Origin: Erysipelothrix larvae
GTDB taxonomy: Bacteria; Bacillota_I; Bacilli_A; Erysipelotrichales; Erysipelotrichaceae
Direction of reading: 5' to 3'
DNA length: 32,000 nt
NCBI RefSeq assembly: GCF_001545095.1
Contig: NZ_CP013213.1
Span: 1,740,001-1,772,000 of the forward strand
A program made the position numbers and the translations under genes. The notes below the pieces were generated by a model, which did no database searches, had not been told where the DNA came from, and saw only the letters and a list, made by a program, of their open reading frames with translations. Positions 26,671-28,158 of this stretch are shown piece after piece (position 1 is the stretch's first letter; each line of letters begins with the position of its first letter).

Positions 26671-28116
26671 TTATAAAACTGATCCATTTGTTTTAATCAC
26701 GTTTTTATACCAGTGAAACGAATCTTTTCTAATTCTTTGACCCGTTCCGTTTCCAAGATCATCTTTGTCAACGTAAACATAACCATATCGTTTACTCATT
26801 TCAGCACTTGATGAACTTACGATATCAATTGGTCCCCAACTCAAATATGAAATAATCTCTACACCATCCTTGATACATTCTTTAATTTGAGCTATATGGT
26901 CTCTTAGATAAGCGATTCTATATTCATCATGAATAAATCCACCTTCTTCAACTACATCAATTGCACCTAAACCATTTTCAGCAACTATTAGTGGTACGTT
27001 ATATCGATCCCAATATTGAGATAGTGAATTATAGAGCCCTAGAGGATCTGCTCTCCATTCCCATGGTGTGGGCTTAAGATATTGATTTTGGGAACCATCA
27101 AATGCTTTAATTGTATTGACAGTTGAATCAACAACTTTGGATGAATAGTATGAGATTCCTAGAAAGCTCATGGTATTCTTTTGAATTAACTCGAGGTCTC
27201 CTTCATGAATCTGTAGATCTATATTATGTTCAGCAAAGTATCTGAGTGCATACATTGGGTAGGTTCCACGAAGTTGAACATCTGTGAAGTAGTATTGCAT
27301 TCTGTTCTTCTTCATTGTCAAAACTACGTCTTCAGGTTTGCATGTCGCGGGATAGTAAGTACCATCAGCTACCATAGTTCCTAATATTGCATCAGGATCA
27401 ATTTCACTAGATAGCTCCACAATTTTAGCGCATGCAACAAACTGATTATGAACTGCTCGGTACATCAATGATTCCATGTGTTCTTCTTGGTCATCATAGA
27501 TACCAAGAGAGCCAAATTGTACGGTTGGAACAAGGTTCACTTGATTGCAAATTATCCAATACTTCACCTTTCCTTTATAACGTTGCAATAGAACCTTTGC
27601 GTAATTCACAAAGAAATCTATCACTTTACGATTTCCAAATCCACCATATTGTGTCACAAGATGTAATGGAATATCGTAATGATACATTGTCATTATTGGT
27701 TCCATATCATTTGCAATTATTTCGTCAATTAAATCATCATAGAATTTCAAACCATTTTCATTAGGTATTGTCTCATCACCATTTGGGAATATACGAGACC
27801 AAGAAATACTAGTTCGAAATGCTTTAAAACCCATCTCTTTAAAATACTTTATATCATCTTTGTAGGTGTGATAGAAATCAATGCCATATCGTTTTGGATA
27901 ATATCCAACTTTATCGTTTATGGCTGTTTCAATCTGAAGTAATGTTCCACCACCCTCTTTACTAATATTGGAACGATCCATGTTTGTGTCATAAAGGTGT
28001 ATATCAGAGGTTGACATTCCTCGCCCGTCAACATCATATGCTCCTTCTGCTTGACATGCAGCTATTGCTCCTCCCCATAAAAATTCATTTGGAAAACCAT
28101 TAGGTATTTTTTTCAT
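26671..28116 (-). CDS. GH1-family 6-phospho-beta-glycosidase with Gln replacing the acid/base Glu
   Basis: The following GH1 blocks are present:
- [15 protein letters not shown]
- [12 protein letters not shown]
- [11 protein letters not shown]
- nucleophile IVAENG (Glu codon 26977-26979)
- 6-phosphate-type C-terminus [25 protein letters not shown]

The acid/base block reads [12 protein letters not shown] (Gln codon 27541-27543). The start is probably the ATG at 28116 ([17 protein letters not shown] upstream); the ORF track extends to 28152. Confidence 0.9.
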
Positions 28117-28158
28117 TTTTCCTCCTTTTAGGACACGTGTGAATGTTCTCATTGTATG

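Follow-up and report, generated by a model that had tools for sequence, protein, structure and literature searches.

The window analysed here, a stretch of 32,000 nucleotides of the Erysipelothrix larvae genome (contig NZ_CP013213.1, positions 1,740,001 to 1,772,000), contains on its minus strand a gene of glycoside hydrolase family 1 (GH1) whose product has a glutamine, Gln192, in the column of the general acid/base glutamate of the family. The gene lies at 26671..28116, encodes 481 amino acids followed by a stop codon and forms an operon with genes of a sugar phosphotransferase system (PTS). The same glutamine is found throughout a clade of Firmicutes proteins that lies within the 6-phospho-beta-glucosidases; we refer to these as N-Q sequences, after the Asn-Gln that replaces the usual Asn-Glu (N-E). 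The explanation that we favour, with about even confidence, is that the protein would be a working GH1 6-phospho-beta-glucosidase of the retaining type, from a separate subfamily that has lost its acid/base glutamate for good, and would act in a myrosinase-like manner. The fold, the family and the logic of PTS coupling are all known; what appears to be new is an ancient and abundant bacterial GH1 lineage that lacks the acid/base glutamate and has a co-evolved permease.

Glutamine at the acid/base position

The gene product matches the Pfam GH1 profile (PF00232) over positions 3-452 of 453 with an E-value of 4e-114. The longest open reading frame (ORF) is 26671..28152 (minus strand) and begins at an ATG at 28152, but the true start is likely to be the ATG at 28116 instead, which has an apparent ribosome-binding site, AAAGGAGG, just ahead of it; translation from this codon gives a 481-residue product that matches the NCBI entry 'beta-glucosidase [Erysipelothrix larvae]' (P0001) exactly. 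All four NCBIfam 6-phospho-beta-glucosidase models (NF007158, NF007154, NF007356 and NF011589) score the protein under their cut-offs, the best with 525 bits against 639, and the generic public annotation is a consequence of these scores.

Read on the minus strand, the codons tgg ata att tgc aat caa gtg aac encode W-I-I-C-N-Q-V-N, and Gln192 is the CAA that appears as TTG at 27541..27543 of the plus strand, flanked by the Asn191 codon (27544-27546) and a valine codon, just as the original prediction had read it. In GH1 the acid/base is the glutamate of the N-E motif that closes strand beta4, and the earlier by-eye placement of the glutamine in this column proves right by the PF00232 profile, by the solved 6-phospho-beta-glucosidases and by the motif of a plant myrosinase. 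HMMER alignments to 6WGD (Bacillus licheniformis), 3QOM (Lactobacillus plantarum) and 2XHY (Escherichia coli BglA) are ungapped at the motif, where the query block pairs with KVKYWMTFNEIN. The Sinapis alba myrosinase 1MYR reads VKYWLTINQ187 where the query reads VKYWIICNQ192, and because Gln187 sits in the same motif the analogy with myrosinase is positionally exact.

Residue roles were transferred to the query through sequence alignment from the structures of L. plantarum Pbg1 (LpPbg1) and Streptococcus mutans Bgl (SmBgl), whose site residues and numbering are described in PMC3605045. The acid/base of LpPbg1, Glu180, falls on Gln192, and the glycone-site residues Gln22, His134, Asn179 and Trp423 fall on Gln22, His146, Asn191 and Trp427. 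The nucleophile Glu375 corresponds to Glu380, which is encoded by GAA at 26977..26979 (minus strand) and lies in an IVAE380NG motif, the (I/V)-x-E-N-G found at the end of strand beta7 in GH1. The 6-phosphate-binding loop, L8a (26785..26811, minus strand), has Ser436 (26809-26811), Lys442 (26791-26793) and Tyr444 (26785-26787) for Ser432, Lys438 and Tyr440 of LpPbg1, as is usual for 6-phospho-beta-glucosidases, and a small residue, Ser435, rather than tryptophan at the position of LpPbg1 Ala431. By this mapping, and by the invariance of these residues described below, the nucleophile codon and the remainder of the catalytic and 6-phosphate apparatus are intact, as had been claimed. A shifted alignment is ruled out by the three ungapped alignments, the mapping onto published structures and the myrosinase motif, all of which agree. 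A confident AlphaFold model, computed from 49 sequences of the family (predicted local distance difference test score, pLDDT, 85; predicted template modelling score, pTM, 0.90), has the (beta/alpha)8 fold of GH1 and ends strand beta4 at Asn191, and its best structural matches in Foldseek are 6-phospho-beta-glucosidases (TM 0.87-0.89).

The GH1 6-phospho-beta-glucosidases of known structure (BglA 2XHY, Pbg1 3QOM, S. mutans Bgl 3PN8/4F66 and 6WGD) are 43-48% identical to the query and have the same fold; nucleophile motif, glycone residues, PTS coupling and the Ser/Lys/Tyr phosphate loop are common to all, with no insertions or deletions. The query differs from them in the glutamine, in the replacement of Asn183 by Leu, Arg267 by Gln and Cys241 by Gly, and in having its own divergent PTS permease component, EIIC.

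Conservation and signature residues of the N-Q clade

Among the 120 best homologues listed (72-81% identity) 119 read N-Q, and the remaining one (P0024) was missed by the motif search; they belong to Erysipelotrichaceae, Enterococcus, Paenibacillus, Clostridium neonatale, Faecalicoccus, Holdemanella and Breznakia. A second search, from a Listeria immobilis member and read out from the alignment, gave N-Q in all 120 sequences listed, with Listeria seeligeri, L. kieliensis, Enterococcus faecalis, Lactococcus, Pediococcus acidilactici and relatives, several Companilactobacillus species, Ligilactobacillus, Paenibacillus and Heyndrickxia represented. The species genomes of GTDB yielded 79 usable loci, of which 35 are N-Q, namely every relative with at least 54% identity and two at 47-49%; the others are all N-E. 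When the related GH1 proteins are clustered at 50% identity the whole group is reduced to one representative, and the next match, 50% identical, has glutamate, as do 84 of the 90 full-length representatives; glutamine is present only in the query, its representative and a 45%-identical cluster (P0122). Three further representatives, P0206, P0246 and P0258, have S-G, H-N and E-H in place of N-E, with neither glutamate nor glutamine at the position, and may be additional acid/base-less lineages or local misalignments.

In a neighbour-joining tree constructed without support values, the N-Q sequences form a single clade inside the N-E 6-phospho-beta-glucosidases, which indicates one ancient change from glutamate to glutamine. 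Pairwise ratios of nonsynonymous to synonymous substitution rates (dN/dS) within the clade are 0.02-0.05, as expected under strong purifying selection. In about 275 N-Q sequences spanning 45-100% identity, alanine, serine and glycine never occur at position 192; that the residue is always glutamine, and never a mixture of small residues, argues that glutamine has been selected for a positive role and is not a tolerated loss. A change from GAA to CAA requires a single base, as would be expected of a sequencing error or of a strain-specific mutation in a decaying gene, but such an origin is refuted by the presence of the glutamine in hundreds of independent sequences, the intact ORF and the purifying selection, and a pseudogene is ruled out on the same grounds. 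The view that the gene is not decaying is thus borne out, and the glutamine behaves as a trait of the clade, kept across the 35 GTDB loci and both lists of homologues, in which orthologues with glutamate were not encountered.

Two contigs of C. neonatale type (L004/L005, positions 800-2200 and 9700-17400) have the gene cassette flanked by YoeB/PhdYeFM toxin-antitoxin, resolvase and YqaJ/RadC/phage-like genes. These flanks, together with protein identities of 72-81% across Erysipelotrichia, Clostridia and Bacilli, suggest horizontal spread of the cassette.

Comparison of 33 N-Q with 67 N-E sequences, repeated on the branch of Listeria and lactic acid bacteria, separates the parts of the active site that are retained from those that have changed. 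Gln22, His146, Asn191, Glu380, Trp427, Lys442 and Tyr444 are invariant in the N-Q clade, with Lys442 and Tyr444 at 100%. Asn183 of LpPbg1 is replaced by Leu or Met at position 195, and LpPbg1 Arg267, an aglycone residue that forms a hydrogen bond to the +1 glucose (PMC3605045), is replaced by Gln or Glu at position 274. The +1 subsite position of SmBgl Cys241, which is Gly252 in the query and corresponds to Arg259 of myrosinase, is Gly or Cys in N-Q sequences and Ile, Met, Leu or Phe in their N-E relatives. Position 270 is basic in 100% of N-Q against 18% of N-E sequences, and an acidic residue at 351, ahead of the stacking Trp354, is lost in the N-Q sequences (Pro351). As judged from these aligned positions, remodelling is confined to the acid/base (Gln192) and the aglycone (+1) pocket, and the glycone, phosphate and nucleophile sites are intact.

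Asp251, Arg272 and Tyr362 are nearly invariant and specific to the clade. The first two lie in a signature stretch that runs from strand beta5 to helix alpha5 (27295..27366, minus strand), with Asp251 encoded at 27364-27366, Arg272 at 27301-27303 and Gln274 at 27295-27297. In the N-E relatives position 251 is Arg, Tyr or His and aspartate is essentially absent.

Proposed mechanism and alternative explanations

Plant myrosinases (Sinapis alba 1MYR/1E4M and Arabidopsis TGG1 7Z1I) likewise have a natural glutamine, in the motif (V)KYW-x-x-x-N-Q, and presumably have in common with the query the absence of general acid catalysis and the need for a good leaving group. They are nevertheless distant from it, none being among the 60 best PDB sequence matches, of which the nearest are bacterial 6-phospho-beta-glucosidases; myrosinase has no 6-phosphate site, and the query protein is cytoplasmic and PTS-coupled. 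The identical substitution at the identical position has been made in the laboratory, in Gan1D-E170Q (4ZE5/4ZFM) and BglA-E166Q (8IVY), and 4ZFM, which contains cellobiose-6-phosphate, is termed 'a catalytic mutant' by its depositors. These mutants were made to halt catalysis on O-glycosides, whereas the glutamine of the query is an evolved and conserved state with a co-adapted pocket. Because the mutants are catalytic mutants, an N-Q enzyme is unlikely to turn over ordinary O-glucosides efficiently. A full-text literature search of incomplete coverage did not turn up any account of a bacterial GH1 protein that naturally lacks the acid/base.

All that is required for holding glucose-6-phosphate and for building the covalent glycosyl-enzyme at Glu380 is retained; what is missing is the group that donates a proton to the departing aglycone and afterwards takes one from water. 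In the myrosinase-like mechanism that we favour, the PTS would import a beta-glucoside and phosphorylate it at the 6 position, Glu380 would attack C1 and the aglycone would depart unprotonated, so that the natural substrate must carry a good leaving group, perhaps an anionic one that is S-linked, acyl (ester-linked) or otherwise activated. Gln192 would place the hydrolytic water, which would be activated by the departing anion or by a small-molecule base and not by a glutamate of the enzyme. Glucose-6-phosphate would then enter glycolysis and the aglycone would be released, and in some loci an adjacent YitT-like membrane protein may export it. Of the alternatives in the original prediction, the broader one, that the enzyme handles activated aglycones or uses other non-canonical chemistry, is still the best explanation. 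We suggest more tentatively, and with less than even confidence, that the N-Q clade as a whole could be mechanistically distinct and widespread, with no acid/base of its own, an external or substrate-derived base and a private PTS, and that it could provide a dedicated route for glycosides refractory to ordinary enzymes; candidate substrates would then be S-glucosides such as glucosinolates, 1-O-acyl-glucose esters and other activated glucosides.

Several observations weigh against this mechanism. A canonical N-E GH1 gene (KYWTTINEQS), whose product is nearest to Geobacillus Gan1D (4ZE4/8B80), is directly upstream in eight N-Q loci (L001, at 6536-7978, and L006, L012, L013, L015, L019, L024 and L027), and the N-Q protein there need not be the main hydrolase; the two enzymes may share a substrate and act on separate bonds in it, or share a permease and act on separate substrates. 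No neighbour that would name a substrate (a sulfatase, an esterase or an aglycone-metabolizing gene) recurs in the 34 N-Q loci. The charge of the pocket is mixed, since Lys/His270, Arg272 and, in part, Arg355 have been gained but so have Asp251 and Asp330, and which of the clade-specific residues would face the pocket is judged by homology only. The two aspartates had also been considered as a case against an anionic aglycone, which was withdrawn in view of the basic residues at 270, 272 and 355 and the acid lost at 351. Finally, Asp251, as an invariant carboxylate unique to the clade, could in principle restore an acid/base.

Were that so, the protein would be an ordinary 6-phospho-beta-glucosidase whose acid/base has moved, an explanation that we regard as unlikely. 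Asp251, held by Arg272, is the only clade-wide candidate for the relocated acid; in the model it lies in the C-terminal part of strand beta5, which adjoins beta4, the carrier of Gln192, and it is next to the recognized +1-subsite position 252. However, positions 251 and 272 covary over both groups as a contact pair (Arg/Gln, Ala/Arg and Asp/Arg), and residue 272 is on helix alpha5. Myrosinase Ile257 and Arg259 (1MYR) and SmBgl Cys241 indicate that positions 250 and 252 face the pocket, which together with the covariation suggests that Asp251 probably points away from it, toward the helix. The two deepest N-Q sequences (L033 and L040) lack Asp251, and also lack Arg272. Asp251 and Arg272 are thus most likely to form a salt bridge behind the pocket wall rather than a new acid/base. 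His40 of the capping loop was ruled out as a substitute acid, being Gln in the branch of Listeria and lactic acid bacteria. The narrower proposal of the original prediction, a PTS-coupled 6-phospho-thioglucosidase specific for glucosinolates and hence a bacterial myrosinase, also seems improbable to us. It would account for the glutamine at the acid/base position and for the loss of negative charge at 192 and 351 and gain of a basic residue at 270 relative to the N-E sequences, and members of the clade occur in Pediococcus, Companilactobacillus kimchiensis, Paenibacillus and isolates from beetle-larva guts, which are plant-associated, vegetable-fermenting or gut organisms. However, myrosinase Arg194 and Arg259, which we take to be the residues that bind the glucosinolate sulfate, align to Val199 and Gly252 of the query, and no clade-specific arginine was seen at position 199 or 252 in the comparison of N-Q with N-E sequences. 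Genes for a sulfatase, for isothiocyanate handling or for sulfate export are not conserved near the N-Q genes in the 34 loci. PTS-dependent degradation of sinigrin is known in lactic acid bacteria and has been attributed to CfPttS/CfPbgS of Companilactobacillus farciminis and, in E. coli O157:H7, to BglA/AscB; this route consists of a fused glucose-family IIBCA and a GH1 protein 48-50% identical to BglA/AscB (PMC8660893). It resembles the present system in that PTS uptake and phosphorylation precede the action of a GH1 phospho-glucosidase, there on a thioglucoside, but the query is associated with a split EIICBA of lactose/cellobiose type, and E. coli BglA, itself implicated in sinigrin breakdown, has the normal Asn-Glu in the alignment to 2XHY, so that glutamine is not required. 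The clade is also present in crucifer-free habitats, with C. neonatale in infant-gut metagenomes and a Listeria monocytogenes system that responds to soil extract and to growth in mouse spleen by induction. With the two arginines unmatched, a sinigrin route of different architecture in which Asn-Glu enzymes are implicated and so broad an ecology, a glucosinolate-specific role is not supported.

Two other explanations appear still less probable. One, to which we give little credence, is that the protein is no hydrolase but a phosphorylase or transglycosidase, in which an anionic acceptor, for example phosphate, or else a sugar would react with the glycosyl-enzyme now that the negative charge is gone. 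Without the acid/base carboxylate anions gain access to the glycosyl-enzyme, as is the case for acid/base mutants and for myrosinase when ascorbate is present, the nucleophile is invariant, and a Cof-type HAD sugar-phosphatase gene adjoins the N-Q gene in 11 of the 34 loci. The first step would still require a good leaving group, however, and we know of no GH1 phosphorylase; neither a beta-phosphoglucomutase nor any other gene for beta-glucose-1-phosphate is conserved nearby in the 34 N-Q loci, and the proposal is purely inferential. The other, that the protein has no catalytic activity and serves only to bind a phospho-glucoside, whether as a sensor, a chaperone or a partner of the neighbouring canonical GH1, has in our judgement a slim chance of being correct. 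It would fit the fact that glutamate to glutamine here is the standard inactivating mutation, as in the Gan1D and BglA entries, and the eight loci with an N-E gene immediately upstream, but no variation is seen at Glu380 or at any glycone contact in sequences as little as 45% identical, and the dN/dS values are those of a constrained protein (0.02-0.05). Moreover, the N-Q protein is the sole glycosidase behind the PTS in most loci, being the only hydrolase of the operon in the window and in Listeria, Pediococcus, Lactococcus, E. faecalis, Paenibacillus and C. neonatale, so that if it were inactive the imported phospho-glycoside would be stranded, and some genomes have up to four N-Q paralogues in tandem and no N-E enzyme in the locus.

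GH1 is among the best understood of glycosidase families, and the plant myrosinases are the textbook exception to its rule of two glutamates. If the favoured mechanism is correct, the N-Q clade would be a second, independent, ancient and abundant lineage without the acid/base, in this case cytoplasmic, specific for 6-phosphates and PTS-coupled, and the loss would be a recurrent adaptive solution. Firmicutes such as L. monocytogenes, Pediococcus, Lactococcus and gut Erysipelotrichaceae would then own a dedicated route for glycosides beyond the reach of ordinary phospho-beta-glucosidases, and for thousands of genes annotated as 'beta-glucosidase' or '6-phospho-beta-glucosidase' cellobiose-type compounds are probably not the substrates. 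The family suggests that an unusual class of glycosides of plant, soil or host origin is utilized by Firmicutes of the gut, by lactic acid bacteria of food and by L. monocytogenes, and is relevant both to glycosidase enzymology and to the metabolism of plant compounds by gut and food bacteria.

Operon organization and neighbouring genes

The operon is read from the minus strand in the order EIIC (28159..29388), GH1, EIIB (26240..26566) and EIIA (25814..26161), followed by a regulator (23620..25527), so that the GH1 gene does lie, as originally described, among its own PTS genes and a regulator with PTS regulation domains (PRD). EIIB and EIIA are of the lactose/cellobiose type, and the product of the regulator gene has the HTH/Mga, PRD and C-terminal EIIA(Mtl/Fru) domains (PF08279, PF05043, PF00874 and PF00359) of the LicR/MtlR/Mga-like activators. 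Of the 34 N-Q loci, 29 have an EIIC gene, 28 EIIB, 27 EIIA and 23 the regulator, and the five-gene cassette is also found in Enterococcus, Paenibacillus, C. neonatale, Pediococcus, Lactococcus and E. faecalis. The EIIC belongs to the lactose/cellobiose family but is strongly divergent, scoring 155 bits against the cut-off of 236 of the lacE lactose/cellobiose IIC model, whereas the two other EIICs of the window score 377-389. It is 33-70% identical to the EIICs beside other N-Q GH1 genes and 27% identical to the two cellobiose-type EIICs of the window, and the EIICs linked to N-Q genes form a group of their own; by these comparisons the N-Q enzyme and its permease have evidently co-diversified.

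Between the GH1 stop codon and the start of EIIB there is a predicted RNA hairpin (26618..26663, minus strand; dG -29 kcal/mol, z = -5.3 relative to shuffled sequences) that lacks a U-tract. Terminator prediction gave no call at this site, and the hairpin may be an intra-operon element of RNA processing or stability, or an attenuator.

Other loci contain a second N-Q paralogue, and Merdibacter sp. Marseille-QA0792 has four in tandem (L018, 1008-8446). Such arrays, of two to four paralogues of CNQ, VNQ and FNQ types, are also seen in L007, L014, L021, L022, L040 and L043; they are interleaved with genes for small YitT-like membrane proteins and the Cof-type HAD phosphatase, and they suggest that the family has radiated onto several related substrates in the Erysipelotrichaceae. 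The YitT-like gene, like that of the phosphatase, recurs in 11 of the 34 loci.

The L. monocytogenes cassette has the order IIB-IIC-IIA-GH1-PRD regulator and lies immediately upstream of the vga/lin ABC-F gene; from this gene order, the published descriptions and the neighbouring vga/lin (lmo0919), it is lmo0914-lmo0918. Its GH1 protein has the sequence KYWIVINQIN together with Asp251, Arg272 and Tyr362. Family and cassette genes are the same as in the window, but the GH1 proteins are 56% identical and the gene order is different. This is the only member of the clade with published expression data: the transcript of lmo0917 ('similar to beta-glucosidase') is raised at every time point in soil extract, as confirmed by quantitative reverse transcription PCR (PMC3179493), and lmo0915, which is given as missing from Listeria innocua, is induced in mouse spleen (PMC2679221). 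As far as they were read, the papers that mention lmo0914-0918 report no substrate and do not remark on the missing acid/base. The lmo0917 gene offers a handle for direct testing in a genetically tractable organism. Two L. monocytogenes 'plasmids' in PLSDB, NZ_CP030101.1 and NZ_LR134399.1 (2.9 Mb and 394 kb), carry coaA, a gabD-like gene and lmo0914-0919, and are evidently mislabelled chromosome or chromosome fragments.

Directly upstream of the operon in the window are genes for a SIS-domain protein (29807-30553, minus strand) and for a PTS EIIC of the ascorbate/galactitol family (PF03611; 30550-31815, minus strand). Ascorbate is used by plant myrosinase, which makes this a curious neighbour, but the pairing does not recur in the other 33 loci and is probably a coincidence. 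The window also contains two lactose/cellobiose-type PTS sets with canonical EIICs, one of them with its EIIC at 6168-7454 and the second consisting of a regulator (14309-16249), EIIA (16249-16590), EIIC (17241-18596) and EIIB (18600-18923). A short GRDB-like ORF at 16702-17223 matches the first half only of the glycine reductase B profile. Two paralogous genes for class-II fumarase/aspartase-type lyases are located at 10342-11736 and 19573-20937, both on the minus strand, and the latter is translationally coupled to a malic-enzyme gene at 20934-22112.

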